The notes under the pieces: generated by a model
What the model saw: the letters and a program-made list of their open reading frames with translations, nothing else
Told to the model about the DNA's origin: nothing
Database searches by the model: none
Shown: piece by piece, positions 4,424-22,022 of the stretch
Numbering within the stretch: the first letter of the stretch is position 1
How the letters are laid out: the number at the start of each line of letters is the position of its first letter
Position numbers and translations under genes: made by a program
From: Polynucleobacter necessarius
Lineage (GTDB): Bacteria; Pseudomonadota; Gammaproteobacteria; Burkholderiales; Burkholderiaceae
Reading direction: 5' to 3'
DNA: 32,000 nt
Assembly: GCF_900095195.1 (NCBI RefSeq)
Contig: NZ_LT606950.1
Location: forward strand, 366,164-398,163

Positions 4424-4453
4424 ATAATTCCCGAGCAGTTTGCTGGGTCTTAT
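4424..4453. promoter_or_regulatory. imperfect palindrome upstream of iscR; candidate IscR autoregulatory operator
   Basis: ATAATTCCCGAGCA-GT-TTGCTGGGTCTTAT. The right arm is the reverse complement of the left arm except for one missing C and two mismatches. It lies about 80 nt upstream of the iscR ATG, where Rrf2-type autoregulation is expected. No binding data. Confidence 0.3.
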
Positions 4454-4531
4454 GGTAAAGTTGAGCGTAATGGTTGGGTATTACCGACCCGTCCATTGGC
4501 TGTCCATAACAATCCATTGTCAAGGTGACAT

Positions 4532-5050
4532 ATGAGACTTACTACTAAAGGTCGTTTTGCAGTAACCGCGATGATTGATTTGGCTCTGCGCGAGGCGCAC
4601 GGGCCTGTAACGCTTGTCGGAATTAGTCAGCGACAAAAAATTTCACTCTCTTACCTCGAACAGTTATTCGGCAAATTACGTCGATTCAACATCGTGGACA
4701 GTACGCGTGGCCCTGGTGGCGGGTATACGCTCGCTCGCCCATCCAATGAGGTAAGTGTTGCCGACATTGTTGTGGCTGTCGATGAGCCATTGGATGCCAC
4801 TCAGTGTGGCGGAAAAGGAAACTGTCAATCAGAGGAAGATAGTCATGGCTGTTGTATGACACACGATCTGTGGAGCAATCTCAATTTAAAAATGGTTGAG
4901 TATCTCAGCTCGGTGACTCTGAAAGATTTGGTTCAGCAGCAAGAGGGGCGTGGCGTAGTGATTCAGGATATGCGCCAGAAAAAAGTCAAAGTAGAAAGCG
5001 CAAAAGCGGAAAAACTTACTCCAGCTGTTGCTGCGAAAAGGGGCCTGTAA
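4532..5050 (+). CDS. iscR: Fe-S cluster assembly transcriptional regulator IscR (Rrf2 family)
   Basis: MRLTTKGRFAVTAMIDLAL N-terminus. The Cys/His cluster-ligand region is DATQCGGKGNCQSEEDSHGCCMTHDLW. It is the first gene of an isc operon. Confidence 0.9.
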   Translation: MRLTTKGRFAVTAMIDLALREAHGPVTLVGISQRQKISLSYLEQLFGKLRRFNIVDSTRGPGGGYTLARPSNEVSVADIVVAVDEPLDATQCGGKGNCQSEEDSHGCCMTHDLWSNLNLKMVEYLSSVTLKDLVQQQEGRGVVIQDMRQKKVKVESAKAEKLTPAVAAKRGL

Positions 5051-5124
5051 CCAAAGTGCCGCTGGTGAACTCCGTATTTAATTTGGCGCGACAAAGCTAA
5101 CTCTTACATTATTTGAAACACAAT

Positions 5125-6384
5125 ATGAACGCACCAAGAATACTGCCTCAACAACCGGTTCCAATGTTTAGTCCAAAACACTTTCCAGTGTACATGGATT
5201 ATTCAGCAACTACACCGATTGATCCGCGTGTGGTTGACAAGATGTTGCCGTATTTGCGTGAGCAATTTGGCAATGCGGCATCCCGTAGCCATGCCTATGG
5301 TTGGGCTGCAGAAGAGGCTGTTGAGTGGGCGCGTTCAGAAGTGGCTCTACTAGTTCATGCTGATCCAAGAGAAATTATATTTACGAGCGGAGCGACTGAG
5401 AGCATCAACTTAGCTCTAAAGGGTGCAGCCCATTTCTATAAGGATCGTGGCAATCACATTATTACGGTGAAGACTGAGCACAAGGCGACCTTGGATACTT
5501 GTCGCGAACTTGAGCGAGAAGGTTTTGAGGTGACGTATTTAGATGTGTTGCCCAATGGCTTGATTGACTTCGTGCAATTGGAAACCGCAATGAAGCCTGG
5601 CACCATTTTGGCTTCGGTAATGTATGTCAACAACGAAATCGGCGTTGTGCAAGACATTCCACGTATCGGTAAACTCTGCCGCTCACGTGGCGTTATCTTT
5701 CATGTTGACGCAGCGCAAGCTACTGGCAAAGTAGAAATCGATTTAGAAAAAATTAAAGTGGACTTGATGAGCTTTTCAGCGCACAAGACCTATGGTCCTA
5801 AAGGCATTGGCGCCTTATTTGTGCGCCGTAAGCCCCGTATTCGTATTGAGGCCCAGATCCATGGTGGCGGCCATGAGCGCGGTATGCGTTCTGGCACCTT
5901 GGCGGTTCACCAAATTGTGGGTATGGGTGAAGCATTCCGCATTGCGCGTCTCGAGATGGCCGAAGAGAGTAAGCGTATTCGTGCGTTGCGCGACCGCTTG
6001 CTTGATGGTTTAAAAGATATTGAAGAGGTGTATGTGAACGGTGACATGGATAGTCGTGTGCCGCACAACCTCAATATCAGTTTTAACTATGTTGAAGGCG
6101 AATCCATGATGATGGCGCTCAAAGATTTAGCGATCTCATCCGGTTCTGCTTGCACCTCTGCCTCCCTAGAGCCTTCGTACGTTTTGCGCGTGCTCGGTCG
6201 TAACGATGAATTGGCACACAGCTCCATTCGCTTTACCTTGGGTCGCTTTACAACTCAAGAAGAGGTGGACTTCACCATTCAGTTAGTTAAAGACAAGATT
6301 GCGAAATTACGCGAACTTTCTCCACTGTGGGAAATGTACAAAGATGGAATCGACTTAAGCACGATTCAATGGGCTGCACACTAA
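5125..6384 (+). CDS. iscS: cysteine desulfurase IscS
   Basis: [23 protein letters not shown] (PLP Lys) and [17 protein letters not shown] (catalytic Cys). The track starts at TTG 5113; the in-frame ATG at 5125 is preferred. Confidence 0.9.
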
Positions 6385-6416
6385 AAGATATATTGAAAAG
6401 TTAACGAGGAAATACC

Positions 6417-6803
6417 ATGGCATACAGCGAAAAAGTCATTGACCATTATGAAAATCCCCGCAACGTTGGCTCTTTTGAAAAGAGTGACACCAGCGTTGGT
6501 ACCGGCATGGTTGGGGCGCCGGCATGTGGTGACGTGATGAAGCTACAGATTCGTGTGAACGATCAAGGCGTGATTGAGGATGCCAAGTTCAAAACGTATG
6601 GTTGTGGCTCTGCAATTGCCTCATCTTCATTGGTTACTGAATGGGTCAAGGGTAAGACCTTGGATCAAGCATTAGAAATTAAGAACTCTTTAATTGCTGA
6701 AGAGTTAGCATTGCCACCTGTGAAAATTCACTGCTCGATTTTGGCGGAAGATGCAATCAAGGCTGCGGTTGCTGACTATAAAGAAAAATATCCAACCAAA
6801 TAA
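6417..6803 (+). CDS. iscU: Fe-S cluster scaffold IscU
   Basis: 128 aa with GAPACGDVMKLQI, YGCGSAIASSS and IHCSILAEDA. Confidence 0.95.
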   Translation: MAYSEKVIDHYENPRNVGSFEKSDTSVGTGMVGAPACGDVMKLQIRVNDQGVIEDAKFKTYGCGSAIASSSLVTEWVKGKTLDQALEIKNSLIAEELALPPVKIHCSILAEDAIKAAVADYKEKYPTK

Positions 6804-6820
6804 GCAATAACTGAATCATC

Positions 6821-7144
6821 ATGGCAATTACCTTAACTGAAAAAGCAGCAAAACACGTTACTCGCAATCTTGAGAAGCGCGGTAAAGGTTGCGGCCTACG
6901 TTTAGGCGTGCGCACTACGGGTTGTTCAGGCTTAGCGTATCAGCTCGAGTATGTGGATGAACCTGCTGTTGAAGACCAGGTATTTGAGTCAAATGGCGTA
7001 AAAGTATTTGTTGATCCAAAGAGCTTGGCTTACTTAGATGGAACAGAATTGGATTTCGTGCGTGAGGGTTTGAACGAAGGATTTAAGTTTCAAAATCCCA
7101 ACGTAAAAGACGAGTGTGGTTGTGGCGAATCCTTCCGCGTCTGA
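6821..7144 (+). CDS. iscA: Fe-S cluster insertion protein IscA
   Basis: 107 aa with C-terminal ECGCGESF and an internal GCSG motif. Confidence 0.9.
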
Positions 7145-7649
7145 CGATTACTTTCGCTTCTTTGGCCTAAACCAGCAATTCAAAATCGATTTGCCTGCGC
7201 TTGATCAGGCATACCTAACCATCCAAAAAGAAGTGCATCCTGATCGCCATGCACGCGGCAGCAAGTCGGAGCAACGGATAGCAATGCAAATGGCTACATT
7301 AGCCAATACCGCGCACCAAACACTGAAGAATCCTATTCAACGAGGTTTATATCTCTGCCAATTGCATGGTGTAGATGCCACCCTGGAAACCAATACTGCC
7401 ATGCCGGCCGTCTTTCTCATGAAGCAGATGGAATGGCGCGAAAGCCTGGATGAGCAAGCAGAAGATTTGCCGGCCTTAGAAGAATTGATGTCTGAAGTAG
7501 AGCAATCCAAAGAAGATACATTGATGGAAATTGTCCAGGCTATAGACGGCGCTAAAAACTATCAGCGTGCCGCTGAGCTTTTGCGTGGCCTCTTATTTAT
7601 TGATAAGTTTGCTGCTGAGCTTGATGATGCTATTGCAGCCTTAATCTAG
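7116..7649 (+). CDS. hscB: co-chaperone HscB (J-domain)
   Basis: DYFRFFGL plus the HPD motif ([10 protein letters not shown]). There is no in-frame ATG near the 5' end. Candidate GTG starts at 7116 and 7122 overlap the end of iscA, so the start is uncertain. Confidence 0.8.
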
Positions 7650-7671
7650 TCTACCCGTACACTATCGTTCC

Positions 7672-9537
7672 ATGGCACTCCTACAAATTTCTGAACCCGG
7701 TAAGTCGCTTGCGCCCCATCAGCGTCGCATTGCGGTGGGAATCGATTTGGGAACAACGAATTCTTTAGTAGCGATTATTCAAGATGCATTACCAAAAGTG
7801 CTTGCAGACGAGCAAGGACGCGAATTGCTGCCATCAGTGGTGCGGTATTTGCCAAATGGCCACACTCAAGCAGGGTTTGAGGCGCTAGAACATGTGGTGA
7901 GTGATCCTAAGAATACGATTGTTTCCGTAAAGCGCTTTATGGGTCGCGGGCTTACAGATGTGGAGCACATTGAGAACGCACCATACGATTTCGTTGATCA
8001 ACCTGGCATGCTCAAACTACGAACCGTTGTAGGCGATAAAAGTCCAGTCGAAGTGTCGGCCGAAATTTTGGCGCGCTTGCGTCAACTGGCTGAAGATTCG
8101 GTGAATGATGAGATTGTGGGCGCTGTGATTACGGTACCAGCGTATTTTGATGATGCACAACGTCAAGCAACCAAAGATGCAGCAAAGCTGGCTGGAATTG
8201 AAGTATTACGCCTGCTAAATGAGCCAACCGCTGCAGCAATTGCTTACGGTTTAGATAATGCCTCCGAAGGAATCTATGCGGTATATGACTTAGGTGGTGG
8301 CACGTTTGATATCTCAATCCTGCGGATGAGTAGGGGGGTATTTGAAGTTTTTTCCACTGGCGGTGATTCTGCTTTAGGCGGCGATGACTTTGATCATCGT
8401 CTCTACTGTTGGGTAATTGAGCAGGCTAAATTACCACCGCTATCGATTCATGATCAGCGTACCTTGCTTCAAGCGTGTAAACATGCCAAAGAGTTGCTCA
8501 GTCACAACCCCTTAGCGCGTGTGCATGAGACCCTTTCGGATGGTACGGTCGTTAATGTTGGTATTAGTCAGGCCCAGTTTTTTGAGATTACTCAGAACTT
8601 GGTAAATAAAACCCTTATAGCCTGTAAAAAAGCATTGCGAGATGCTGGCCTTAAGGCTGAAGAGGTAAAAGGTGTAGTCATGGTTGGCGGATCGACACGG
8701 ATGCCAAACGTGCAACGTGCTGTTGGCGAATTGTTTGGAACCCAACCCTTAAATAATTTAAATCCAGATCAAGTGGTGGCTCTTGGTGCAGCAATGCAAG
8801 CGGATTTGTTGGCAGGTAATCAAGGTAAAGATGATGAGTGGTTATTACTCGATGTCATTCCACTCTCCCTCGGTATTGAAACCATGGGCGGATTGGTTGA
8901 AAAAATCATTCCACGTAATACGCCGATTCCAGTTGCTAGAGCGCAGGATTTCACAACCTTTAAGGATGGGCAAACTGCGCTAGCAATACAAGTTGTCCAG
9001 GGTGAGCGTGAGTTAGTGCAGAACTGCCGATCTCTTGGTCGTTTTGAGTTGCGCGGTATTCCACCGATGGTGGCAGGTGCCGCTCGCATTCGAGTGACTT
9101 TTCAGGTTGACACTGATGGGGTGCTATCGGTCAGCGCTACTGAGCAAGGTTCTGGAGTCCAAGCTTTCATCGATATCAAGCCTTCGTATGGTTTAACGGA
9201 TGCTGAAATCACGCGCATGCTACAAGATGGATTTGCCTCCGCTAAAGAAGATCTGTTGGCGCGGTCATTGCGTGAGGAGCAAGTAAGCGCCCAACGTTTA
9301 TTGGATGCTGTGCAAACAGCTTTAGACAGTGATCGCCATTTGCTGACTCTAGAGGAGCAGGCGGCTATTGATCAAGAGATGGCGAAGCTGCAAAAGATTT
9401 TGTTGGAAGAGACCGATAGTTCTGTGGTCCGGAAAGCGGTTGATCATGCTGCAAAAGCAACCGATGCGTTTGCGCAAAAACGCATGAACTCCAGTATTCA
9501 AAAGGCACTATCAGGCAAGAATGTTGCTGAGATATAG
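7672..9537 (+). CDS. hscA: Fe-S protein assembly chaperone HscA (Hsp70 family)
   Basis: 621 aa with [17 protein letters not shown] and the [16 protein letters not shown] Hsp70 signatures, in isc operon context. Confidence 0.9.
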
Positions 9538-9563
9538 AGTATTTCATAAAAATAGATAACACC

Positions 9564-9902
9564 ATGACGCAAATTGTTGTTGTTCCCCACAGTGAATATT
9601 GCCCAGAAGGCGCAGTCGTTGAAGCATCACCAGGCACTTCAATTTGCGAGGCATTGCTCGAGAACGATATTCCGATTGAGCATGCTTGCGATATGGTTTG
9701 TGCCTGCACTACCTGTCACGTGATCGTCAAAGAGGGTTACCAAAGCCTGAATCCCCCCGATGAAAATGAGGAAGACATGCTGGATCGGGCTTGGGGTTTA
9801 AATCCCCAATCCCGTCTTTCTTGCCAAGCCATTGTGGCCAAAGAGGACCTCGTGATTGAAATTCCCAAGTACTCGATTAATCACGCCAAGGAAAATCACT
9901 AA
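9564..9902 (+). CDS. fdx: ISC-type [2Fe-2S] ferredoxin
   Basis: 112 aa with the cysteine pattern CDMVCACTTCHV...LSCQ typical of adrenodoxin-like Fdx. It is the last gene of the isc operon. Confidence 0.9.
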   Translation: MTQIVVVPHSEYCPEGAVVEASPGTSICEALLENDIPIEHACDMVCACTTCHVIVKEGYQSLNPPDENEEDMLDRAWGLNPQSRLSCQAIVAKEDLVIEIPKYSINHAKENH

Positions 9903-10040
9903 AACAGATCAATCCAGGCACTAATTTAGCGCATTGCGTTCAAATGAATGCATTGATGGTCAGCGCCATGGATGGTAACCACTAATATGAAGTTGTTCAT
10001 TCTGTAGTGTGTTTTCCGTAGTACCTCCATAAATCTTTTT

Positions 10041-10070
10041 AAGCCATCCTTCGGGGTGGCTTTTCTTTTT
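10041..10070 (+). terminator. rho-independent terminator closing the isc operon
   Basis: AAGCCATCC-TTCG-GGGTGGCTT (9-bp stem with one G.T pair) followed by TTCTTTTT. Confidence 0.7.
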
Positions 10071-10193
10071 GGTGGTGATTAACAATCCACAGATTGATCT
10101 AATGAACTAATCATCTTTCGAATTCTGAATTTCTTAGTTCACTTACAAGACTGCAATTCCTACACTGAATGCAACAGAACTTCAGGAATCAAC

Positions 10194-10484
10194 ATGACGG
10201 TATTGATAGTGGGTGGTGATCGTATTTCGAGTATCATGAAATATTTAGCCCAGAACGGCTTTAATGACATTTTGCATTGGGATGCAAGACGAAATGGTAA
10301 TACCCATCGGTTTATGCCACAGAGTGCGCGTTTAGTTGTGATTTTGATTAATTATCTTAATCACGGCATGGCTAAAAAGATTAAGCGTGATGCGGAAGAG
10401 TTGGGCGTGCCTGTACTTTTTAGTAAAAATTCTGCCTCTGAGCTAAGTCAGATATTTCGGGCAGATAAGCACCTCATTCATTAG
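10194..10484 (+). CDS. small conserved protein, DUF2325-like
   Basis: 96-aa ORF. The pattern LIVGGD...H(x)...RLVVILINYLNHGMAKKIK...GVPVLF fits my memory of the DUF2325 family (Rossmann-like beta-alpha unit with conserved His). The family assignment is from memory only. Confidence 0.5.
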   Translation: MTVLIVGGDRISSIMKYLAQNGFNDILHWDARRNGNTHRFMPQSARLVVILINYLNHGMAKKIKRDAEELGVPVLFSKNSASELSQIFRADKHLIH

Positions 10485-10507
10485 GTTTTCATCCGCCCGG
10501 CAAACTT

Positions 10508-11869
10508 TTATTGCGAAACTGCCTCGCGAATCATGCCAGCAGCAACAGTATGATTTGTGGCTTCGTCAATCAAGATAAACGCACCAGTACGCGGAGATTG
10601 GTCGAATAAGTCCGCAACAATCGGCTTTTGCAAAATAAAATCCACTCGCCCAATTTCATTGGTAGAAAGCGCATGGACATCACTGGCATGCGATAAGGTC
10701 TGAACATCCAAGACTTGTTGGATATTTTTAACCTTTGCGCCAACCGTATTGGTGGTGTGACGCAGCGCGTATTTACGACTCAGAGAGAGTGGCTCGCTAT
10801 CTAACCAGCATAAATCAGCGGAAAGTTGTTTGCTAAGTACGGGCGGATTGGTATCTTCAGCGCTAATAAATAAAGAGCCACGCGATACGTCAATATCCTC
10901 AGCCAATTGAATTGCTGCGGCTTCGCCAGTTTGAGCAGATTCCACAGCATTATTACCTTTGCTGCCTGAGCCATTCCCGAGATAAATCTCAGTAACCGTA
11001 GCTTCCGAGCCGCCTGGTAATACCCTAATCTTTTGGCCTTTGCGAACGCTGCCGAATTTAATCTCGCCGAGATAGCCACGGAAATCATCTGAAGCGCATC
11101 CATTCTGACGTGCTACATATTGCACGGAGAAGCGTAAGGCTAATTTTTCGGATTCAGGGCTGGTATCAAGACCTTCGAGTAATTCCAGCAGAGTAGAGCC
11201 ATTATACCAAGGGGTGTGTTGGCTTCTGGTAACAACATTGGCCCCAAATAAGACTGAGATGGGAATTAATGTTGGAGTGGGCAAACTAATTTTGCTGGCG
11301 AGGTCTTCAATGGCGGATTTGACGGTGTTGTAAACCCTCTCATCAAATTCAAACAAGTCCATCTTGTTGATGGCAAATGCCACGTGACGCAAGCCTAATA
11401 GATGCACAATCGCTGCATGACGCTTAGTTTGGGCGAGTAATGTCGCTGGGCTAGTGGTGAGATCAACGCGAATCGCATTTACTAATATGACTGCTACATC
11501 AGATTGGGATGCTCCCGTAACCAAATTGCGAGTGTACTGTTCGTGACCAGGAGCGTCAGCCGTAATAAATTTACGCTTCGGTGTTGAAAAATAGCGATAC
11601 GCTACATCAATGGTGATACCTTGTTCACGCTCAGCTTCCAGGCCATCAGTTAAAAGCGCCAAATCTACCACAGCATCAGAGGAGGTAACGCGCGCATGTT
11701 TCGTCTTAGAAATGGACTCAAGTTGGTCTACCAAAATCGATTTCGTGTCATAAAGTAGACGACCAATTAAAGTGCTCCTGCCATCATCAACGCTACCAGC
11801 GGTAATGAAGCGCACTACGTTTTGATGCGCATTTTGATATGCCGTACTGATCGATGAATGCTTGTACAT
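10508..11869 (-). CDS. cysN: sulfate adenylyltransferase subunit 1 (CysN)-like GTPase; ORF open but orphaned and probably non-functional
   Basis: This is residues 111-563 of the 563-aa track ORF, starting at an internal ATG (complement of 11867-11869). It has RFITAGSVDDG-R-STLIGRLL, DAPGHEQYTRN and NKMD. The P-loop Lys is Arg (AGG, complement of 11777-11779). The partner gene cysD is absent. Confidence 0.6.
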   Translation of the reverse strand: MYKHSSISTAYQNAHQNVVRFITAGSVDDGRSTLIGRLLYDTKSILVDQLESISKTKHARVTSSDAVVDLALLTDGLEAEREQGITIDVAYRYFSTPKRKFITADAPGHEQYTRNLVTGASQSDVAVILVNAIRVDLTTSPATLLAQTKRHAAIVHLLGLRHVAFAINKMDLFEFDERVYNTVKSAIEDLASKISLPTPTLIPISVLFGANVVTRSQHTPWYNGSTLLELLEGLDTSPESEKLALRFSVQYVARQNGCASDDFRGYLGEIKFGSVRKGQKIRVLPGGSEATVTEIYLGNGSGSKGNNAVESAQTGEAAAIQLAEDIDVSRGSLFISAEDTNPPVLSKQLSADLCWLDSEPLSLSRKYALRHTTNTVGAKVKNIQQVLDVQTLSHASDVHALSTNEIGRVDFILQKPIVADLFDQSPRTGAFILIDEATNHTVAAGMIREAVSQ

Positions 11870-12199
11870 CGTTCTCTTGAGGGTAGACTTTTTCGATTGC
11901 AACGCCATAGTGGTCTTCAGTTGTTTTGACCATATCGACGGTTTCTTGATGCAAGCGACCCGTCGCCAAGGTAAAAACTTGATATTGGCATTGGCCTTGG
12001 TAATCGCATCGGTAACGACCATGTCTTCAGCAGCTAGGCTGGTTGCAAAACGAACATCTGAAAACCGTTTAGATATATCGGACAGGCGCTTCTTTAAAAC
12101 AGTTGATTTATCAGCAAGTTCAGTTGGCGTAAGAGTGCTTGGTGGAATGGACCAAAAAGTCGGTTTTTCGAGGGAATTTTGAAGGTTTTGCTGGGTCAT
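11870..12199 (-). pseudogene. cysH: remnant of PAPS/APS reductase gene cysH (about 110 5' codons, frameshifted), fused to cysN
   Basis: Frame 0 gives RFATSLAAEDMVVTDAITKANANIK. A +1 frame then gives VFTLATGRLHQETVDMVKTTEDHYGVAIEKVYPQENDVQAFIDQYG, which are classic CysH motifs. The rest of cysH is missing. Confidence 0.8.
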
Positions 12200-12276
12200 T
12201 TACATACTCCGAGAGGGGGCAAATAGGCTGCCTCCAGCTCTGACACAGCAGTTTATTGGCTATTTTTATTACTTAC

Positions 12277-12311
12277 AAATATATAAAAGTCATCTTTTTA
12301 TATATAAAAGT
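12277..12311. repeat. AT-rich direct/inverted repeat in the former cysH promoter region
   Basis: ATATATAAAAGT occurs at 12279-12290 and again at 12300-12311, a 21-bp period. The spacer carries CTTTTTATATAT, the near reverse complement of the first copy. The repeat lies 80-110 nt upstream of the cysH remnant start. Confidence 0.5.
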
Positions 12312-12348
12312 AATGGAAACGAGTGATTTACCTGCCTAAAACTACTTT

Positions 12349-13265
12349 TTAATCCAAATCAATATCAGACTCAGGCTTGAGTGCCGCTTTTACTTTGGCT
12401 TCATCAAGCTTGGGTGAGCATAACTCGATGAATTCATAGGCAAATCCGCGCAAAAAGGTGCCTTTTCGTAGTGCAATCCGAGTGGTGTTGTCCTCAAATA
12501 GTTGGCCGACATCCAATAGGCTCAATTTTGTGTCTCGATCAGTTTGATATGCCATGGATGCGATGATGCCAATCCCCGGGCCTAATTCAACGTAAGTTTT
12601 TATAACGTCAGCATCAAGTGCGGACATTACGATATCGGGCGTAATTCCAGCTTTAGCAAAAGTTTTATCAACCAATTTTCTGCCAGTGAATCCTTCGTGA
12701 TAGGTAACGATCGGAAATTCAGCAAGATCTTCAAGAGTTAAATTTTGCTTACCTTCAAGAAGGCGGTCTTTCGGCACTACTGCAGTGTGGTGCCATGAAT
12801 AGTACGGAAACGTAACGAGCTCAGGAATGCCTTCTAAAGCTTCGGTGGCAATACCAATATCCGCCTGACCCTCTAGTAATAACTCCACAATTTCTTGTGG
12901 GCTGCCTTAATGAAGTGCTAGATGAACGCCCGGGAACTTCTTCTTAAATTGACTGACAACATTTGGCAGGGCATAGCGCGCTTGTGTATGGGTCGTTGCA
13001 GTTGTGAGTTGGCCTTTATCTGCCTGACTAAATTGAGCACCCAGCTGTTTAATGTTTTTAGTATCTAGCAAAATACGCGCGACGATCGTTAAGAGTTCTT
13101 TGCCAGGTTCGGTAAGGCCAAGAAGGCGCTTGCCTTTGCGGACAAAGAGCTCAATGCCCAATTCATCCTCGAGATCCAAGATGTGCTTACTTACCCCGGA
13201 TTGAGAGGTGGCAAGTGCATTGCCAACTTCAGTCATAATGATGATAATTCGATACGTAAATTCAA
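12349..13265 (-). pseudogene. cysB: LysR-type cysteine-regulon activator CysB, disrupted by an in-frame stop
   Basis: Track ORFs 12907-13407 and 12349-12888 are in the same frame. They read ...THTQARYALPNVVSQFKKKFPGVHLALH-TAA-GSPQEIVELLLEGQADIGIATEAL. The TAA (complement of 12907-12909) sits where CysB proteins have Gln. The first about 20 codons of the HTH region look shortened and frameshifted (..NLRIELSSL / IIIIMTEVGNALATSQSGVSKH). Confidence 0.85.
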
Positions 13266-13786
13266 ACCAAAGGACAAAAATACGATCAATCTTGGCAAGT
13301 ACACCATCAGTTGATTGATCCTCGGTAACAATATCCAACTCATGTGGGCGTGCACAGGCGAGAACGGAAGCGCCTTGAGAAATCGACTCTGATTGATCGT
13401 GCTTCAATTTGTCTTTACTAACTTCAATAACTCATGGACTTTATCTGCAATTTCTTCTTTGCTAGGACGCTCTTTGCGATTCTTGACTTGTAGGCCAAAG
13501 GCAACGTTATCAAATACTGTCATGTGCTTAAACAGTGCATAGTGCTGGATACAAACCCCACTTGACGATCTCGTACGGGGGTAGTGGAAGTGTCTACGCC
13601 ATCCAAAATAATGGTTCCACTATCAGGTGTTTCGAGGCCCGCAATAATACGCAACAGAGTGGTTTTCCAGCAGCCAGATGGACCTAGGAGGGCGACTAGT
13701 TCTCCGGAGGGAAAATCCAGAGAGACGTTATTTAGCGCAACAAAGTTCCCGAAGGTTTTGTTGATATTTTTTACTTCAATACTCAT
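13266..13786 (-). pseudogene. cysA: sulfate/thiosulfate ABC transporter ATPase CysA, frameshifted and internally deleted
   Basis: The N-terminus with Walker A is intact ([18 protein letters not shown]). At about 13545 VGFV-SSTMH replaces VGFVFQHYALF (a T is missing). The next frame gives [22 protein letters not shown]...LLKLVKTN*. It then jumps to KHDQSES...ARPHELDIV. The ABC signature and Walker B are absent. About 520 nt remain versus about 1050 expected. Confidence 0.8.
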
Positions 13787-14072
13787 AGTGGTCCTTCAAT
13801 TGCTGGGGCTGCGTTTGTTTCGAATTTCAGACGCCATTCCACATAGGTTTTGGCGGCTAGAGTTAATAGTGCTAATAGGGCTAATAAGGACGCCACAGCA
13901 ACTGCAGCGACAAAGTTGTATTCGTTATAGAGAATTTCAACCTGCAACGGAATGGTGTTGGTATAGCCGCGAATGTGTCCCGAAACGACCGAGACGGCGC
14001 CAAACTCACCCATGGCACGAGCGTTACAAAGGATGACGCCATAAAGTAGGCCCCACTTAATATTGGGCAAAA
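13783..14072 (-). pseudogene. cysW: 3' third of sulfate permease gene cysW (5' two-thirds and cysT deleted)
   Basis: [68 protein letters not shown] is nearly identical to the C-terminus I remember for CysW. Homology stops at about 14072. The stop overlaps the cysA ATG (ATGA, 13783-13786). Confidence 0.8.
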
Positions 14073-15423
14073 GCTTTGGATTTGAACAATTCATTCCTAA
14101 TTCATTTCTGAATGATTTGTCTAATCCAAGCAACGACCCATTAGTGAATCAAGTATTTCTGAATGAAGTGCCAGTTACTAAAAGTCAGAATACAGCGCTT
14201 GATCCATTATTGGTTCGAAAAGATTTTCCGATTCTTTCTGAGCGAGTCAATGGTCGTCAATTAGTCTTGTTTGATAACGTTGCGACAACCCAAAAGCCCC
14301 AAGCAGTGATTGATCGTATTAGCTATTTTTATGAGCACGAGAATCCCAATATTCACCGTGCTGCCCATGAATTAGCTGCGCGCGCAATCGATGCTTATGA
14401 AGGTGCTCGTGAAAAGGTAAGAGTATTTCTCAACGCTAAATCGGTTAATGAAATCGTTTTTGTGCGTGGTACGACCGAAGCTATCAACTTGGTATCACAA
14501 AGTTGGGGCCGCCAAAACCTCAAAGAGGGCGATGAAATCATTCTCAGTAATCTTGAGCATCACGCAAACATTGTTCCTTGGCAGTTGTTGGCCAAAGAAA
14601 AAGGATTAAGTATTCGTGTGATACCCGTTAATGATGATGGCGAGTTGCTGTTGGATGAGTATCAGAAGCTGTTCAATAGTCGCACTAAGCTTGTGAGTTT
14701 TACCCACGTATCCAATGCATTGGGTACGATTACGCCAGCTAAGAAGATTATTGAAATTGCGCATGCCGCTGGAGTGAGGGTGCTGCTGGACGGTGCCCAA
14801 TCCATTTCGCATATGAGAGTGGATCTGCAAGACCTCAATCCGGACTGGTTTGTATTTTCTGGACACAGGGCTTTTGGACCAACGGGTATTGGCGCTCTGT
14901 ATGGCAAAGAAGATTTGCTTAATGCCACTCAGCCATGGCAAGGTGGCGGCAATATGATTCAAGATGTGACGTTTGAGCACACCAAGTTTCATGATGCTCC
15001 AAGCCGTTTTGAGGCGGGTACAGGCAATATTGCGGATGCGGTAGGTTTTGGTGCCGCCAGTGATTACGTCAACTCTGTTGGCATAGATTTAATTGATCAA
15101 TACGAGCATCAACTCTTGTTATATGCAACCCGCTTACTCAAAGATGTTCCCGGTATTCGATTGATTGGGACTGCACAACATAAGGCTAGCGTTTTATCTA
15201 GCGTTTTATCGTTTGTGATTCCAGGAATCAAGACTGAGGATATTGGTGCGGCGTTAAATAAAGAGGGTATTGCAGTTCGCTCAGGACACCACTGTGCGCA
15301 GCCTATCTTGCGTCGCATGGGGGTAGAAACGACCGTTAGACCATCCTTAGCTTTTTACAATACTTGCAAGAGGTGGATAGGATGATTGCTGTATTGCATC
15401 GTATTCGCTCCCAGCATAGATAA
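14063..15423 (+). pseudogene. SufS/CsdA-family cysteine desulfurase, inactivated
   Basis: Class-V aminotransferase motifs are present: NVATTQKP, HHANIVPW and RSGHHCAQP. The PLP-lysine motif SGHK is SGHR (AGG 14867-14869). A 12-bp tandem duplication is at 15188-15211. A 1-nt deletion near 15366-15371 ends the ORF at 15385. The shifted frame continues (C)EEVDRMIAVLHRIRSQHR to TAA 15421-15423. There is no in-frame ATG at the 5' end. Confidence 0.75.
15188..15211 (+). repeat. in-frame 12-bp tandem duplication (AGCGTTTTATCT/AGCGTTTTATCG) inside the sufS-like gene
   Basis: Read directly from the sequence. It encodes SVLS-SVLS where family members have a single copy before SF(V/I)xxG. Confidence 0.85.
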
Positions 15424-15449
15424 CCATCAGTTTGGTTAGAGTAGAAATA

Positions 15450-15475
15450 AAAAGGCCACTGAAAAGTGGCCTTTT
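15450..15475 (+). terminator. rho-independent terminator after the sufS-like gene
   Basis: AAAAGGCCACT-GAAA-AGTGGCCTTTT, a perfect 11-bp stem with a T-tail. Confidence 0.75.
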
Positions 15476-15481
15476 AATCGT

Positions 15482-15735
15482 ATGAAAATGAATTATGCAA
15501 AGGGTTCTTCAAGCTCGGCATATGCGCTTGCAGGGGTTGGGTTAATTGGTTTATCAGTGCATCTTGGCTCAAAGAATGTTTTTTAGCAAACTTATATCTC
15601 CAAGGAGGCAGTCTATTAGACTACCTGCTAGGTTTAGGCATCGTTGGCAGTTTTGTTTTGGGAGTGGTGTTGATTGCCGGGCATGTGAGCAAGGAAGGTG
15701 TGGCTGAAAATTTTTACGAACATACACCATATTAA
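15482..15735 (+). pseudogene. candidate small two-TM membrane protein gene split by a frameshift in a T6 run
   Basis: ATG 15482 gives MKMNYAKGSSSSAYALAGVGLIGLSVHLGSKNVF, then TAG at 15584-15586. The -1 frame continues LANLYLQGGSLLDYLLGLGIVGSFVLGVVLIAGHVSKEGVAENFYEHTPY to TAA 15733-15735. One extra T in the run 15579-15584 would join them. It is flanked by terminators. No homolog recognised. Confidence 0.3.
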
Positions 15736-15752
15736 ATCAAATGCAGATAAAT

Positions 15753-15780
15753 AAAAAGGGTGCTAATGCGCACCCTTTTT
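15753..15780. terminator. bidirectional rho-independent terminator
   Basis: AAAAAGGGTGC-TAATGC-GCACCCTTTTT, an 11-bp perfect stem with an A-run on one side and a T-run on the other. It sits between the small + strand ORF and the 3' end of fpr (minus strand). Confidence 0.75.
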
Positions 15781-15804
15781 ATTAACTAAGAATTTAGTAT
15801 TCGT

Positions 15805-16581
15805 TTATTTTTCTACGAATGCACGTTCAAATACGTAGTCACCCAGCTGTCCAAGACTTGGTGAGACCTTAAAGCCTTTGGCATCAAGCATTTTTGACGT
15901 TTCTTTTAGCATGGATGGGCTGCCGCAAATCATGGCACGGTCAACTTCAGGATCAAGAGGCGGCAAGCCGATGTCTTTAAATAGTTGACCTGATTCAATA
16001 GCGGTAGTTAAGCGACCAGTGTGCTTAAAGGCTTCACGGGTAACGGTTGGGTGGTAGATGAGTTTTTCACGGATCAATTCGCCTAGATATTCATCTTGCG
16101 TTAATTCATTTTTAATGTAATCAGCATAGGCTAGCTCGCTAACTAAGCGAACCCCATGAATCAATACAACTTCCTCAAACTTTTCGTAAGTCTCTGGATC
16201 GCGAATAATGCTCATAAAGGGCGCAAGTCCAGTGCCAGTGCTAAATAAGTAAAGGTGTTTACCTGGGTTGAGGTCGTCAAGCACTAAAGTGCCAACGGAC
16301 TTTTCGCTCACCAAAATGGGGTCACCCACTTGGATTTTTTGTAGGCGTGAGGTTAGGGGGCCATCTTGAACCTTAATGCTTAAGAATTCCAAATGCTCTT
16401 CATAGTTCGGGCTAGCGACGCTGTAAGCGCGAACGAGTGGTTTGCCTTCAACCTCAAGACCAATCATTAAGAAGTGGCCACTACGGAAGCGTAAGCCTTT
16501 GTTACGGGTGGTGGTGAAGCTAAATAGGGTGTCGTTCCAGTGGTGGACGGTTAAAACGGTTTCGGTGTGATATGCGGCCAT
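15805..16581 (-). CDS. fpr: ferredoxin-NADP+ reductase (bacterial Fpr type)
   Basis: 258 aa with RAYSVAS (FAD-binding RxYS), LFSTGTGLAPF (NADP-binding GTG) and the C-terminal ERAFVEK typical of Fpr. Confidence 0.85.
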   Translation of the reverse strand: MAAYHTETVLTVHHWNDTLFSFTTTRNKGLRFRSGHFLMIGLEVEGKPLVRAYSVASPNYEEHLEFLSIKVQDGPLTSRLQKIQVGDPILVSEKSVGTLVLDDLNPGKHLYLFSTGTGLAPFMSIIRDPETYEKFEEVVLIHGVRLVSELAYADYIKNELTQDEYLGELIREKLIYHPTVTREAFKHTGRLTTAIESGQLFKDIGLPPLDPEVDRAMICGSPSMLKETSKMLDAKGFKVSPSLGQLGDYVFERAFVEK

Positions 16582-16735
16582 AACAAGCTTTTAATAAATT
16601 TGCAAAACCTTGATTATCCTCAAAATCTGCTCATTTTTTGAGGGTTTGATGGATTAACTTTTCATAACCAATGCACTTTTGGTAATAAGGCAGGTCTTTC
16701 TGCCGATTGAGCCCATCTCCCACTATGATTAAGGG

Positions 16736-17215
16736 ATGACTCGTGCTCAATACCTCTATCTCTCGTTCATTAGTCTTAGCTTGGTTATCTTTGCAGTGAT
16801 ATTGCAACAGGTTGGCTACCAAGGCGTCAGCTTTTTGCCTTGTCCATTGTGCATCTTGCAAAGAGTTGGGTATCTGGGCATTGGCATTTCTTGTTTATTT
16901 GCTGCGAGCTTCCATTCCTCGCGGAAGTTCTTTCACATCGTCGCCATTTTATCGGCTATATATGGCCTTGGCGTAGCTGCTCGTCATGTATGGTTACTAT
17001 CTCATCCTGGGGCTTCTTGTGGCATTGATCCCCTTGAGACATGGATTAATCAGTTTCAATTAGCTCAAGGTCTTCCATGGCTATTTAAGGCTGATGATCT
17101 GTGCTCTGCAAAACTTCCCGCAATTCTCGGGTTACAAGTTCCTGAATGGTCTTTGCTTTGGTTTACTTTTTTATTGTTGATCTTGCTAGTTACTTTTCTG
17201 AGAAGAGCAAAGTAG
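16736..17215 (+). CDS. dsbB: disulfide bond formation protein DsbB
   Basis: 159 aa with four hydrophobic segments, CPLCILQR (the CxxC pair) in the first periplasmic loop, and a second Cys pair (GASCG ... DDLCS). Confidence 0.8.
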   Translation: MTRAQYLYLSFISLSLVIFAVILQQVGYQGVSFLPCPLCILQRVGYLGIGISCLFAASFHSSRKFFHIVAILSAIYGLGVAARHVWLLSHPGASCGIDPLETWINQFQLAQGLPWLFKADDLCSAKLPAILGLQVPEWSLLWFTFLLLILLVTFLRRAK

Positions 17216-17251
17216 TGCGGATAAAAAATCTCACACCATGGGTCGTGGGAC

Positions 17252-18097
17252 TCAGCCTCCAATATGCAGGCAGACCCGTTGTTGGGTTTGCTGCACTGGT
17301 GGATTTGTTTTTGTCAGGGCTGGAGCTGTCAAAGTGGCTGGACTTCCGTAGAACTCTCCCTGTACCAAAATCCTCGAGTCATGAAATGCAAGTTGATCTA
17401 GATTCTTGGTAATCACAATATTAGCTTCACTGCTTGTACTCTTAGGCTGTTCAATATCGCTATAGAGATTCGCACCAGATTGCAAAAGGTGTCGTGCAAT
17501 TTTGATGTAATGAACGTGCGCTCTTTCGGATGAGCCCTGAAGATCGGTAATCGAATCTATATTGATAGCCACTTTTAATGAATTGAGTCGATTGTTTTGC
17601 AAAACAAAGTGGAGGCGTTTGGTATCTTTTACTAATGAAATTGGCAATTCAATCACGATTCGGTTTGGTGAGAACCCGAGAGCATCAACCACTTTTCTAA
17701 ATGCTGAGCCATGATTGTCATCTATGGCAGAGATGAGGCCCTCATGAACATTCAGAAATAAAAGAGCGTCATCAATGCCATGTAGCGTGAAGTTTAATAA
17801 ATGAATTGTTCGACACAGGCGGTCTAGACTGGTAATTTCGTTATCATCGACTGGTTTGGAAAAAAGGTCCCCAGGCTTTATTTGATTGCCATAGGCATCA
17901 ATGCAGCGAACAAATGCTTCATAGGCGTATGGGTTAACCAGATCTGTGGAGCGGAAGATTGGTTGAAATACGCTAGAAAGCGTTAAATTTTGCCAGCGAG
18001 CGCTGATCTCGCCAGCACCATTTAAAAATAATGGACGATTAACGTTATTACTTTTAAGGCCATCAATAAACAATTGGGTTTTGCTAGGAACTCTCAT
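17252..18097 (-). CDS. stand-alone EAL-domain protein with degenerate catalytic residues
   Basis: 281 aa, collinear with the EAL-domain consensus. Retained or altered positions: FQPIF...YEAFVR (EAL becomes EAF), FLNVHEG (Asn kept), IVIELPIS (ELTE becomes ELPI), VAINIDSI (DDFG becomes IDSI), YIKIA (KxD becomes KIA), VITKNLD (AEGVE lost), VQGEFYGSP (QGxxxxxP kept). Confidence 0.6.
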   Translation of the reverse strand: MRVPSKTQLFIDGLKSNNVNRPLFLNGAGEISARWQNLTLSSVFQPIFRSTDLVNPYAYEAFVRCIDAYGNQIKPGDLFSKPVDDNEITSLDRLCRTIHLLNFTLHGIDDALLFLNVHEGLISAIDDNHGSAFRKVVDALGFSPNRIVIELPISLVKDTKRLHFVLQNNRLNSLKVAINIDSITDLQGSSERAHVHYIKIARHLLQSGANLYSDIEQPKSTSSEANIVITKNLDQLAFHDSRILVQGEFYGSPATLTAPALTKTNPPVQQTQQRVCLHIGG

Positions 18098-18115
18098 TTG
18101 ATGGCCGATACCTTT

Positions 18116-19152
18116 CTATCGTTTCTTATTGGCAAATACATCAATCGCGATTTGATCGTAAATATCGCCGTCATCAAATTGTTCTTTTTGAGCCTTTTTC
18201 CAGCCACCAAAAACGGCATCGACAGTAAATGTTTTTACGGGCGGGAAGTTGCCACCATATTTTTTCGTAATTGCGGGAGTAGGGTTATTTGGGCGGAAGT
18301 AGTGTTTAGCAATAATCTCTTGCCCATTTTCTGTGAACAAGAAATCTAGATACGCTTTTGATAGTTTCTCGGTACTATGCTTTTTGGCATATTTTTCAAC
18401 AACCGCCACAGGAGCTGGTGCTTCGATCATGATCGATGGATACACCACATCAAATTTTCCTGCACCAACTTCTTTATTGATCAGCTCAGCCTCATTTTCA
18501 AAGGTGATGAGAGCGTCGCCAATATCACGCTGGGTGAAGGTGGTCGTTGCGCCTCTGCCACCACCAATCGAGGATTGGTACATTTGTAAAGAGGTCGCGC
18601 ACAAACTCTTTTGCTTGTTTCTCGCTCTTGGTCTTCTGGAGCGCATAGCCATATGCTGTTAAATAGGTATAGCGACCATTTCCAGAAGTTTTAGGATTCG
18701 GAATAATGACTTGTGTGCAGGCTTGGTTAAGCCTGACCAATCTTTAATATTTTTTGGATTCCCTTTGCGCACCAAAAAGACGGTTACAGAAGAGTAGGGT
18801 GCAGATTGCTTCGGAAACGCGTTGCGCCAATTTGGATTCACTAAATTGCCACGTCCAACCAAGATATCGATATCTGGCGATTGATTCATGGTGACAACAT
18901 CGGCCTCAAGACCGCCAATAATTGCGCCAGCTTGTTTGCTGGACCCGCCATGGGATTGATTGAGGTTGGAGCTGTTCCGGTTTTGGCTTTCCATTCGGCA
19001 GCAAATACTGGGTTAATGTCTTTGTAGAGTTCGCGAGAAACGTCGTATGAAACGTTCAAAATCGTATTGGGGTTTTTGGTTTGTGCAAAAGCACTGGCTC
19101 CGATTAGGGCACAGATTGCAAAAAGACTGCTGGTTTTAGTAGTGAATTTCAT
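18116..19152 (-). pseudogene. sbp: periplasmic sulfate-binding protein Sbp/CysP, at least 3 frameshifts
   Basis: Four successive track ORFs in different frames tile one Sbp. They are: signal peptide + ILNVSYDVSRELYKDINPVFAAEWKAKTG; NQSHGGSSKQAGAIIGGLEADVVTMNQSPDIDIL...FLVRKGNPKNIKDW; TQVIIPNPKTSGNGRYTYLTAYGYAL; GGGRGATTTFTQRDIGDALITFENEA...FGGWKKAQKEQF. The frame switches lie near 18970, 18718 and 18565. Confidence 0.9.
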
Positions 19153-19386
19153 GATGTTCCAATGGGTTTATTAAAAGTGAAATCTACTAAATAGTAGCTT
19201 AATATTGTCAAACCGACTTGGGAATCAAGAACATTTGCTAAGTAATCCTGCTCTAAGAATATTCAGTTAAGGTTTGGGGTGTGTTAATAGCGTTTTTGGT
19301 TATTAGCTTATTCATAGAGCTTCTTTTACAAAGGAATTCGTCTCGCCTAAGATGTAGGCACTTATGACCCTCCATAATTAGGAATT

Positions 19387-20362
19387 TTGATGACCTACTT
19401 CACTGATAACTCCCAAGCTATTTGTCGCACACTGCTAGTGAGATTAAATCGCGTTACTGACGGCACAAAGGCTACGGTGCTGGCAAAAATTGAAGGCCGC
19501 AATCCAGCTTACTCCGTGAAATGTCGTATTGGTGTGGCGATGATTAACGATGCTCAAGAGAAGGGTCTTCTCGGCCCTGGCAAGGAAATCGTAGAGCCAA
19601 CATCGGGTAATAGGGGTATTGCGCTGGCTTTCGTTGCCGCAGCGCGTGGCATCCCGCTTACGCTCACTATGCCAGAAACAATGAGCTTGGAGCGTCGCAA
19701 ACTCCTGACAGCATTAGGCGCCAAGATCGTGTTAACTGAAAGTCCGAAAGGGATGAATGGTGCCGTTGCCAAGGCAAAAGAAATTGCGGAATCGGATCCC
19801 AATAAATATGTTTTGCTTCAGCAATTTAGCAATCCCTCGAATCCAGCGATTCATGAAAAAACGACTGGTCCTGAAATTTGGGAAGATACAGACGGCAAGA
19901 TCGATGTCTTCGTTGCTGGTGTTGGAACAGGCGGTACTATTTCTGGTGTGGGCCGTTACATCAAAAATGAAAAGAAAAAGACTATTGAAGTGGTTGCAGT
20001 GGAGCCAACTGCAAGTCCAGTAATTACGCAAAAACTGAATGGCGAAGAAATTAAACCCGCACCACATAAGATCCAAGGTATCGGCGCCGGGTTTATCCCC
20101 GACAACATCGATTTATCGGTGGTGGATAAGGTTGAGCAAGTCAGCAATGAAGGGGCCATTGAGTTTGCTCGCCGCATCGCCAAAGAAGAAGGTATTTGGT
20201 GGGCATCTCTTGTGGTGCCGCCACCGCCGTCGCAGTCCGCCTAGCCAAAAAGCCTGAGTATGCTACAAAACTATTGTGGTTGTTCTGCCAGATGCGGCTG
20301 AGCGCTACTTGAGCTCCGCACTATTTGAAGGCGTCTTTGATGAAAAAGGATTGCCCGCATAA
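19387..20362 (+). pseudogene. cysK: cysteine synthase A (O-acetylserine sulfhydrylase) CysK, frameshifted twice near the 3' end
   Basis: The PLP-Lys motif [11 protein letters not shown] and [10 protein letters not shown] are present. The substrate loop TSGNTG is TSGNRG (AGG 19612-19614). IGxTPLV is ICRTLLV. A base is missing in the T-run 20195-20197 and another in the A-run 20267-20270. The corrected frames read [29 protein letters not shown]-(T)IVVVLPDAAERYLSSALFEGVFDEKGLPA to TAA 20360-20362. Confidence 0.85.
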
Positions 20363-20387
20363 CTTAACCTCAGTTATTCCAGCGAAA

Positions 20388-20416
20388 TAAAAAGGCACCA
20401 AGCGGTGCCTTTTTAT
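20388..20416. terminator. bidirectional rho-independent terminator between cysK and lysS
   Basis: AAAAAGGCACC-AAGC-GGTGCCTTTTT, a perfect stem flanked by A and T runs. A second imperfect hairpin follows at 20422-20454 (ATCAGAATCAGAT / ATCTATTCTGAT). Confidence 0.75.
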
Positions 20417-20465
20417 TTCTCATCAGAATCAGATTAATTCGGATCTATTCTGATCTTTAGCTTCT

Positions 20466-22022
20466 TTACTCTTCCTCGCGACGCAAATGAGGGAAGAGAA
20501 TCACATCGCGAATATTGGGTGCATCGGTTAGCAGCATAACTAAGCGGTCAATGCCAATACCACAACCACCAGTAGGAGGCATGCCGTATTCGAGGGCGCG
20601 AATGAAGTCGTGATCGAAATACATGGCCTCTTCATCACCTGTTTCTTTTTGCTCAACTTGCTTGCGGAAGCGATTGGCTTGATCTTCAGCATCATTGAGC
20701 TCTGAGAAGCCGTTGGCTATCTCGCGTCCGGTAATAAAGAGCTCAAAGCGCTCGGTAATGCCTGGGCGTGTATCAGACTCTCTGGCTAGTGGGCTTGCTT
20801 CGATAGGGTAGTCAATGATGTATGTAGGCACCCAAAGGTGCTCCCCAGCAACCAATTCAAATAAGGCTAATTGCAAAGCACCGATACCCGTGTTCTTGAG
20901 CGTTGGAGAATCTGGGTTCTCGCCACCTTTTTTCAATTCAGCACGAATGAACGCAGCATCTTCTAACTGAGCAGCTTCATAGTTTTTACCAGATTGAGCG
21001 CAATATTTCAGAATCGCTTCATTGATGGTGAGGCGTTGGAAAGGCTTGCTTAAATCGAGTTTACGACCTTGGTGGGTCAAGACAGCAGTGCCTTGCGCGT
21101 CAATCGCTGCAGCGCGAATCAGCCCTTCCGTGAAATCCATTAACCAGCGGTAATCCGTATAGGCCGCATAAAGCTCCATCATCGTAAATTCGGGGTTGTG
21201 GCACGGGCTGACACCTTCATTACGGAAGTTGCGGTTGATTTCAAAGACACGCTCAAAGCCACCAACAACTAGACGCTTAAGATATAGCTCTGGGGCAATG
21301 CGCAAGAACATTTGCATGTCGAGCGCATTGTGATGCGTAATGAACGGTTTTGCTGCTGCGCCACCAGGAATCGGGTGGAGCATCGGTGTTTCAACTTCCA
21401 TAAAGTCAGCATCAAGCATATGGCGACGGAGTGATGCGATGGCTTTACTGCGGGCCTTAAAAGTCTCGCGACTTTCTGGATTAACAATCAAATCCACATA
21501 GCGTTGGCGATATTTTGTTTCGAGATCGGAGAGGCCGTGGAACTTGTCTGGTAATGGACGCAATGATTTGCTAAGTAATCGCAACTGATTGCATTCAACG
21601 GAGAGTTCACCCTTATTGGTCTTAAAGAGGTTGCCCTCAGCAGAGATAAAGTCACCCATATCCCAGTGCTTAAAGGCGCCATGCGTATCCGCACCGGTTA
21701 ATTCATCGTTTATGTAGAACTGAATTTGGCCGCTACGATCTTGAATCGTCGCAAAACTGGTTTTACCCATGACACGTTTCAGAACCATACGGCCAGCTAC
21801 TTTGACATGAATCTTTTTGGCAGCCAATTCTTCTTTGGTCAGGCTGTCATAGTGTGCATGTAAGTCAGCGGCCAGATGGGTGGGCACGAAGTCATTTGGA
21901 AACGCAACGCCGTTTTGGCGCAACTTAGAAAGTTTTTCGCGACGTTCAGCAATGATGTGATTCTCATCAACGGCTTCTGTGGCTGGAGGTAAATTCGTTT
22001 TATCGTTCATAAGGTTTGACAT
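20466..22022 (-). CDS. lysS: lysyl-tRNA synthetase (class II)
   Basis: 518 aa with [20 protein letters not shown] (motif 2) and [15 protein letters not shown] (motif 3). Its ATG overlaps the prfB stop by 1 nt (TAATG). Confidence 0.9.

Follow-up and report, generated by a model that had tools for sequence, protein, structure and literature searches.

Remnants of a sulfur-assimilation gene cluster in a 32-kb window of Polynucleobacter necessarius

The sulfur gene cluster and its lesions

The window, by which we mean the whole 32-kb stretch of Polynucleobacter necessarius DNA that was analysed, was found to contain at 10508-20362 the decayed remains of a cluster of genes for sulfate uptake, activation and reduction, cysteine synthesis and sulfur storage (Table 1). 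To the left of this decayed stretch lie, in order, a phaZ-like gene that runs off the left end, an aminotransferase gene, uvrB, the genes iscR-iscS-iscU-iscA-hscB-hscA-fdx and a DUF2325 open reading frame (ORF). To the right lie lysS, prfB, recJ, an unknown ORF of 332 amino acids (aa), lolC, lolD, tatD, a broken gluQ and dnaE, which runs off the right end. The gene order is Burkholderiales-like, and the GC content of the window is 46%.

ORFs were assigned to families by NCBIfam and Pfam profile matches. Lesions were mapped by tblastn and nucleotide alignment against intact syntenic clusters of two free-living Polynucleobacter (L082 and L081), and deletion junctions were taken from a blastn map against L082; all relatives were seen as 20-kb flanks. 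L081 and L082 were located via a search with the desulfurase and were needed to map the remaining cluster genes, since four other free-living relatives (L083, L001, L002, and L004) do not contain the block from cysB to the desulfurase gene at this site and were usable for cysN, cysD, cysH, and cysK only. Alignment to syntenic regions of free-living relatives had been proposed as a check when the window was first read from its sequence, and it mapped the lesions gene by gene. Three symbiont contigs were also compared. Two belong to sister strains and were independently assembled (L086, an ENA assembly, and L087, a Logan assembly of SRR32119647); their Fdx is identical to that of the window and their DNA is approximately 99% identical. 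The third, LT606951.1 (L085), represents a second symbiont lineage with approximately 79% nucleotide identity.

In both L081 and L082 the whole cluster is intact, with the same order and orientation as in the window. The minus strand carries cysN, cysD, cysH, cysB, cysA, cysW, cysT, sbp and a Ser-hydrolase gene. These are followed on the plus strand by genes for a serine O-acetyltransferase of 302 aa (NF041874), a family 2A encapsulin shell (NF041162, 527 bits; also PF19307, SrpI-like) and its cargo desulfurase (NF041166, 864 bits). After the cargo gene come two small ORFs, tauE and fpr (minus), dsbB and cysK (plus), and lysS, prfB, and recJ (minus), so that cysK, and also a second sbp, lie near the ancestral cluster. 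This gene content and order are like those of the canonical proteobacterial cys regulon (sbp-cysTWA, cysDN, cysH, cysB, cysK), except that CysN does not contain an APS-kinase domain and that there is no cysC in the cluster, which suggests that the ancestral pathway may have reduced adenosine 5′-phosphosulfate (APS) directly. The remnants in the window could all be matched to families of this regulon by homology, through NCBIfam profiles for the fragments of cysN, cysB, cysA, cysW, sbp, and cysK and through tblastn for cysH, and they showed 47-96% identity (tblastn) to L082 and L083 proteins and full-length homologs. In contrast to the canonical regulon, none of these genes in the window could still yield a complete protein whose catalytic motifs are preserved: every locus was shown to be deleted, truncated, frameshifted, nonsense-bearing or catalytically mutated.

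Table 1. Features of the decayed interval and the gluQ pseudogene, with window coordinates
Feature	Position	Strand	Evidence or state
cysN remnant (sulfate adenylyltransferase large subunit)	10508-11826	-	codons 3-447 open, own start lost
Deletion junction, 1.37 kb (L082 485-1853)	11827-11838	.	blastn map
cysH (APS/PAPS reductase) remnant	11839-12199	-	codons 1 to ~122 of 251; tblastn in two frames
cysB (LysR-type cys regulator) pseudogene	12352-13257	-	NCBIfam NF009327 on two ORF halves
cysA (sulfate ATP-binding cassette (ABC) transporter ATPase) remnant	13210-13786	-	profile, blastn, tblastn, alignment
cysW permease remnant	13786-14070	-	only codons 196-290 left
Junction of 5.7-kb gap (L082 4692-10428)	14067-14071	.	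blastn map, reference gene calls
Family 2A encapsulin cargo cysteine desulfurase (CyD) remnant	14066-15417	+	NF041166, 804.9 bits
orf90 remnant (small conserved ORF, frameshifted), then tauE deletion site	15524-15804	.	blastn, tblastn
fpr, intact	15805-16581	-	258 aa, 97% identical to L082, exact match WP_114661999.1
dsbB, intact	16736-17215	+	full length, NF002552 above cut-off
Stand-alone EAL-like ORF, 281 aa, full length, non-sulfur	17252-18097	-	Pfam EAL 29.6 bits, below cut-off
Second sbp (sbp/cysP paralogue) pseudogene	18143-19152	-	at least 3 frameshifts, about 18960, 18715, and 18560
cysK (O-acetylserine sulfhydrylase) pseudogene	19387-20362	+	three frames by tblastn
gluQ (tRNA glutamyl-Q34 synthetase) pseudogene	29550-30126	-	NF004313, positions 4-132 of 299 only

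At the left end of the decayed stretch, cysD was lost entirely in the 1.37-kb deletion, which also took the 3′ half of cysH and the beginning of cysN; no remnant of cysD was detected in the window by tblastn. The remaining part of cysH has a 1-bp deletion at about 11975 (nucleotide alignment). CysN showed 87% identity to the CysN of L083 (tblastn), and its P-loop was changed from GSVDDGKST to GSVDDGRST by a Lys-to-Arg substitution (AGG at 11777-11779), at a position where L086 keeps Lys. The two remnants are joined in one chimeric ORF of 563 aa (10508-12199, minus strand), which is composed of cysH codons 1-76, out-of-frame cysH sequence and nearly all of CysN, and in which TIGR02034 matches residues 130-557. 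This ORF stayed open by chance, and gene callers will report a protein from it.

The cysB gene contains a TAA nonsense codon at ancestral codon 128 (12907-12909), and its first approximately 18 helix-turn-helix codons are replaced by cysA debris; residues 12-313 align in one frame at 91% identity (tblastn). Within cysA, a 1-bp deletion at 13549, two internal deletions of about 430 bp and 225 bp, and a Gly-to-Trp change that turns the Walker A motif GCGK into GCWK (13667-13669) were detected. What is left of cysW showed 96% identity by tblastn and matches TIGR02140 at profile positions 179-259 of 261. The 5.7-kb gap that follows corresponds in L082 to the 5′ part of cysW, cysT, sbp, the Ser-hydrolase gene, the serine O-acetyltransferase gene, the encapsulin shell gene and codons 1-141 of the desulfurase gene. 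Neither cysT nor the sbp of the operon left any remnant in the window.

The second sbp was recognized from separate fragments that match TIGR00971 and PF13531 and from tblastn against full-length homologs. NCBI lists a protein of 162 aa named substrate-binding domain-containing protein [Polynucleobacter necessarius] (P0197), located at 18116-18652 (minus strand) of the window, which is the C-terminal fragment of this pseudogene. In cysK, 1-bp deletions at 20195 and 20265 limit the TIGR01139 match to profile positions 2-256 of 298, and in the substrate loop TSGNTG a Thr is replaced by Arg, giving TSGNRG (19612-19614), while the Lys that binds pyridoxal 5′-phosphate (PLP) is kept.

The desulfurase gene had been read from the sequence alone as SufS-like and counted with the cysteine-synthesis genes. 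This assignment had to be given up: the remnant belongs to a family 2A encapsulin cargo cysteine desulfurase (CyD), which is neither a Suf protein nor a cysteine-synthesis enzyme, and its full-length relatives of 587-596 aa are named accordingly. It matches the NF041166 profile at positions 213-611 of 623 only, since codons 1-141, including the LADLAN motif and the N-terminal targeting domain, are gone. In addition, the PLP-binding Lys is replaced by Arg (SGHK to SGHR, 14867-14869), and the C-terminus is out of frame owing to a 1-bp deletion at 15367. The N-terminal domain of family 2A CyD is described in PMC8049743 as necessary and sufficient for encapsulation. No match to the shell was found when the L082 shell was compared with the window by tblastn, and the site of the shell gene falls within the 5.7-kb gap, so that no shell gene adjoins the cargo gene. 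Thus, the free-living relatives encode a canonical shell and a cargo that has its long N-terminal domain beside sulfur-metabolism genes, as in the known family 2A (SrpI-type) desulfurase encapsulins (Nichols et al., 2021, PMC8049743; Benisch et al., 2024, PMC10836720), whereas the system in the window is dead, with the shell deleted and the cargo truncated, mutated from Lys to Arg and frameshifted at its C-terminus. Downstream of the cargo gene, the gene for a tauE/safE-family permease (approximately 0.8 kb) was deleted as well.

The cysD deletion junction, save for a 5-bp difference, and five of the point lesions (the cysA frameshift, the Walker A change, the Lys-to-Arg change in CyD, the first cysK frameshift and the Thr-to-Arg change in CysK) were found to be common to the window, L086 and L087. 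Another three lesions, namely the cysH frameshift at about 11975, the Lys-to-Arg change in CysN and the cysK frameshift at 20265, occur in the window assembly alone and are so far unconfirmed by other data.

The sequence-only reading had named nine damaged loci, cysH, cysD, cysN, cysB, cysA, cysW/cysT, sbp, cysK and the desulfurase gene. All nine were shown to be damaged or gone by tblastn and nucleotide alignment against L082 and L081, and each kind of lesion it had listed (large deletions, nonsense codons, frameshifts and substitutions of catalytic residues) could be mapped. The word damaged is appropriate for the loci that left remnants and not for cysD and cysT, which are absent instead of broken. 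The losses of the serine acetyltransferase, the encapsulin shell and tauE had been missed.

Mode of decay in sister strains and a second lineage

Comparison of the window with L086 showed that remnants and intact genes evolve differently. In the intact genes (window 870-9902 and 15805-17215), 88 substitutions and no indels were found at 10,080 sites, with a ratio of nonsynonymous to synonymous changes of 47:37. At the 3,933 sites of the remnants there were 51 substitutions with a ratio of 38:13, which is about the neutral 3:1, and 14 small indels (Fisher tests, p = 6e-14 for indels and p = 0.04 for the ratio). L086 is also without ten more blocks of 148-391 bp in the decayed interval that are kept by the window and the free-living references; nine of these are located in sulfur-gene remnants (148-389 bp) and one in the EAL-like ORF (391 bp). 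An eleventh deletion in L086, of 342 bp, affects the phaZ-like gene outside the cluster. The near-neutral ratio, the 14 small indels and the nine deletions in the remnants, as opposed to the ratio and the absence of indels in intact genes, uphold the proposal that assimilatory sulfate reduction was lost under relaxed selection. The ratio of 47:37 in the intact genes is itself high, and suggests that purifying selection is weak across the genome, in keeping with a small population of symbionts.

Pieces of cysW/cysT, the hydrolase gene and the acetyltransferase gene that are lost from the window are retained in L086, where they are relocated beside fdx and partly inverted. Since L086 still holds parts of the 5.7-kb stretch, the gap in the window arose after the split of the strains, and in a stepwise manner. 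At the corresponding site (L086 10403-12745 compared to window 9971-10547), the DUF2325 gene is replaced in L086 by 2.3 kb of cluster debris, made up of part of the acetyltransferase gene and the hydrolase gene (inverted) followed by cysW/cysT pieces (direct). The same layout of this 2.3-kb block was found in two independent assemblies, and it is therefore a real rearrangement between very close strains.

In the second symbiont lineage (L085), cysN, cysH, cysB, cysA, cysW, and cysT were shown to carry independent frameshifts or splits at positions other than those in the window, and cysD and sbp are full length. L085 thus represents a parallel and independent decay at an earlier stage. The relation between L085 and the window matches the parallel reduction in independently derived P. 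necessarius symbionts, with which Boscaro et al. 2017 deals.

Probable relaxed selection in a Euplotes symbiont and alternative explanations

Five intact proteins of the window were found to be identical to NCBI entries that bear the name Polynucleobacter necessarius (taxid 576610; WP_114661992, WP_114661995, WP_114661996, WP_114661999, and WP_114662006). We take this name to be reserved now for obligate cytoplasmic symbionts of Euplotes, and the WP_1146 accessions are consistent with the genomes that Boscaro et al. 2017 described for these symbionts. These matches bear out the earlier suggestion of an obligately host-associated Polynucleobacter-like lineage. Its use of low GC content as a sign of host association fails, as free-living relatives have the same GC.

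Taken together, the findings make it very probable that P. necessarius, as an obligate Euplotes symbiont, lost the whole sulfur cluster inside its host by relaxed selection. According to this explanation, the window would be part of a reduced genome of 1.55 Mb of an obligate cytoplasmic Euplotes symbiont, whose free-living ancestors would have carried one contiguous sulfur cluster. With reduced sulfur, most likely cysteine, available in the host, selection would have lapsed on sulfate uptake, activation, reduction and regulation, on cysteine synthesis and on sulfur storage. Once one step was knocked out, the other genes would have become neutral ("domino"). The comparisons show that the remnants gathered point lesions (a nonsense codon, 1-bp deletions and changes from Lys to Arg and from Gly to Trp at catalytic sites) and that a deletion bias is now removing them piece by piece, while purifying selection keeps the essential genes interleaved with the cluster (fpr and dsbB) or flanking it (the isc operon, lysS, prfB, and recJ). 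Because the retained IscS/IscU system consumes cysteine, the symbiont most probably depends on host cysteine, or a precursor of it, from Euplotes. This implies that reduced sulfur, probably in the form of cysteine, is taken from Euplotes. The losses further show that a bacterium inside a host can do without the sulfur-storage encapsulin. The window can thus be seen as a textbook example of the loss of a dispensable pathway, in which point knock-outs, including catalytic changes that look conservative, are followed by stepwise deletion and essential genes are spared.

Several observations weigh against this explanation. The sulfur genes are clustered and several were lost in single deletions, so that statistics based on gene counts overstate independence. 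Decay extends beyond the sulfur pathway: gluQ is a pseudogene in the window, and a sister strain has broken copies of phaZ and iscR. An AT-drift signal is lacking, as the GC content of the remnants (45.4%) is not below that of the orthologous free-living sequence (44.6%). A GC dip over 10-20 kb of the window was considered as a sign of AT-biased decay and rejected for the same reason, the free-living sequence being equally AT-rich; the local dip is ancestral. Finally, the window covers 32 kb of the genome, and the supply of cysteine by the host is therefore inferred.

Unspecific erosion of the whole genome, with sulfate or oxidised sulfur still assimilated through genes located elsewhere and thus no physiological meaning in the local losses, is an improbable explanation. 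It would accord with the clustering, by which few deletions remove many sulfur genes together, with the gluQ pseudogene of the window and with the broken phaZ-like and iscR genes of the sister strain. It would also accord with a genome type that has about 18% pseudogenes, the figure that PMC5632650 gives for the P. necessarius symbiont. The distribution of the lesions argues against it: each of the 14 ancestral sulfur genes has been inactivated or lost, compared to 2 of the 24 other ancestral genes (Fisher p = 1e-8). When the comparison is made with 9 independent inactivation units instead, the result is still p = 1e-6; the at least nine separate units all lie in sulfur genes, and fpr, dsbB and approximately 20 flanking genes are untouched. 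In addition, the independent lineage L085 broke the same genes, and a 2024 review (PMC11253213, citing Boscaro 2013) states that symbiotic P. necessarius lost the assimilation of nitrate, sulfur, and sulfate. The view that the damage is not random was thus confirmed. The term pathway-specific, also used in the sequence-only reading, holds for the enrichment in sulfur genes and is overstated otherwise, in view of the overall pseudogene content and of the broken gluQ.

It is very unlikely that the DNA comes from a streamlined free-living planktonic Polynucleobacter that relies on exogenous reduced sulfur in the manner of SAR11. Free-living Polynucleobacter do have similar GC and small genomes, and L083, L001, L002, and L004 do not contain the cysB-to-CyD block at this site. 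However, the window proteins exactly match proteins under a name that we take to be reserved for Euplotes endosymbionts, and the dense pseudogene debris, the 47:37 ratio in intact genes and the fast deletion from strain to strain are typical of a small population that was recently restricted to a host.

Sequencing or assembly errors in a working cluster, raised beforehand as a possible refutation, are an equally remote source of the stops, frameshifts, and gaps: the small indels are all 1-bp deletions and three lesions are confined to the window assembly, but the kilobase-scale junction and the five shared point lesions recur in two independent sister-strain assemblies from other data sets, which rules out assembly error for them, no indels were found in the intact genes of the same contigs, and the third genome, LT606951.1, also has a broken cluster.

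Relaxed selection inside the host agrees with what has been described for related systems. The P. necessarius symbiont genomes (Boscaro et al., 2013, PNAS; 2017, Nat Ecol Evol) belong to the same organism group, and the genome analysed here is probably one of those described; the loss of sulfur assimilation in the symbiont is thus already known from the literature. Ca. Pandoraea novymonadis is stated in PMC5632650 to have lost its sulfate transporter. Like Ca. Pandoraea novymonadis, Mycoavidus and Buchnera, the organism studied here is host-restricted, has lost sulfate transport or assimilatory reduction and would need reduced sulfur from the host. Mycoavidus cysteinexigens requires cysteine, and Buchnera aphidicola of Schizaphis graminum carries cys pseudogenes. 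In contrast to most host-restricted genomes of this kind, from which the debris has been purged, the remnants in the window are still readable, which makes it possible to work out what kinds of lesion occurred and in which order. The value of the analysis therefore lies in confirmation and in a warning for annotation, as database records list some of the pseudogene fragments as proteins.

Two aspects may be undescribed, and we consider the chances that both are to be even. One is that PnecC free-living Polynucleobacter contain within the cys cluster a sulfur-storage module of serine acetyltransferase, family 2A encapsulin and desulfurase, which was dismantled in the Euplotes symbionts along with sulfate assimilation. 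The other is that symbiont strains approximately 1% apart differ by at least 10 deletions of 150-390 bp and by one rearrangement, nearly all within the decayed cluster, and so show with unusual directness how fast deletions accumulate, and in what sizes, when the genome of an endosymbiont first begins to shrink.

Neighbouring genes and non-sulfur decay

The interspersed and flanking genes had been reported as intact. This was found to be correct for fpr, dsbB, lysS, prfB, recJ and the isc operon, all of which are full length, and incorrect for gluQ, which is a pseudogene, and for the non-sulfur Ser-hydrolase gene, which is gone in the 5.7-kb gap. Neither fpr nor dsbB showed indels compared to L086, and fpr differed by four synonymous changes to one nonsynonymous change. 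The prfB gene keeps its programmed-frameshift site, CTT TGA C. The gluQ pseudogene consists of an N-terminal fragment of 147 aa and a second fragment in another frame, compared to 303 aa for the intact homolog in L056.

The EAL-like ORF between dsbB and the second sbp aligns end to end with a homolog of 283 aa at 66% identity, and its homologs are 270-285 aa long. It contains a stop codon in free-living L081 and the 391-bp deletion in L086, and it may be on the way out too. Between dsbB and this EAL-like/sbp2 pair, L081 contains a block of approximately 6.9 kb (13953-20870) with genes for DoxX, HU, two TauD proteins and a taurine/sulfonate ABC transporter. The counterpart in the window is 307 bp long (17189-17495), and the block is wholly missing in L082; a cluster for the use of sulfonates may have been either lost by the symbiont or gained by L081.

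Rfam and tRNA scans of the window gave no match. The gene comEC, which encodes a protein of 829 aa and follows tatD in L083, left no detectable remnant in the window. After tatD, a region of approximately 0.8 kb (28752-29550) contains short ORFs only, with no family, RNA or tRNA match, and may consist of debris eroded beyond recognition or mark the breakpoint of a rearrangement. The region at 30121-32000, for which the ORF list gives short ORFs only, was considered as further pseudogenes and this was rejected: it is the 5′ part of dnaE, open throughout and running off the window end. The minus strand at 1-858 is likewise an open phaZ-like gene.

In L086 this phaZ-like gene (769-1281; window 73-414) carries the 342-bp deletion and a frameshift, and it is split in L085. 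The iscR gene of L086 (4968-5501) has a TAG at codon 45 that was seen in L086 only. The IscR of the window (4532-5050) scored 200.2 bits compared to the TIGR02010 cut-off of 207.55 and is 172 aa long compared to 189 aa in L085; judged from its sequence it is probably functional, though somewhat diverged.

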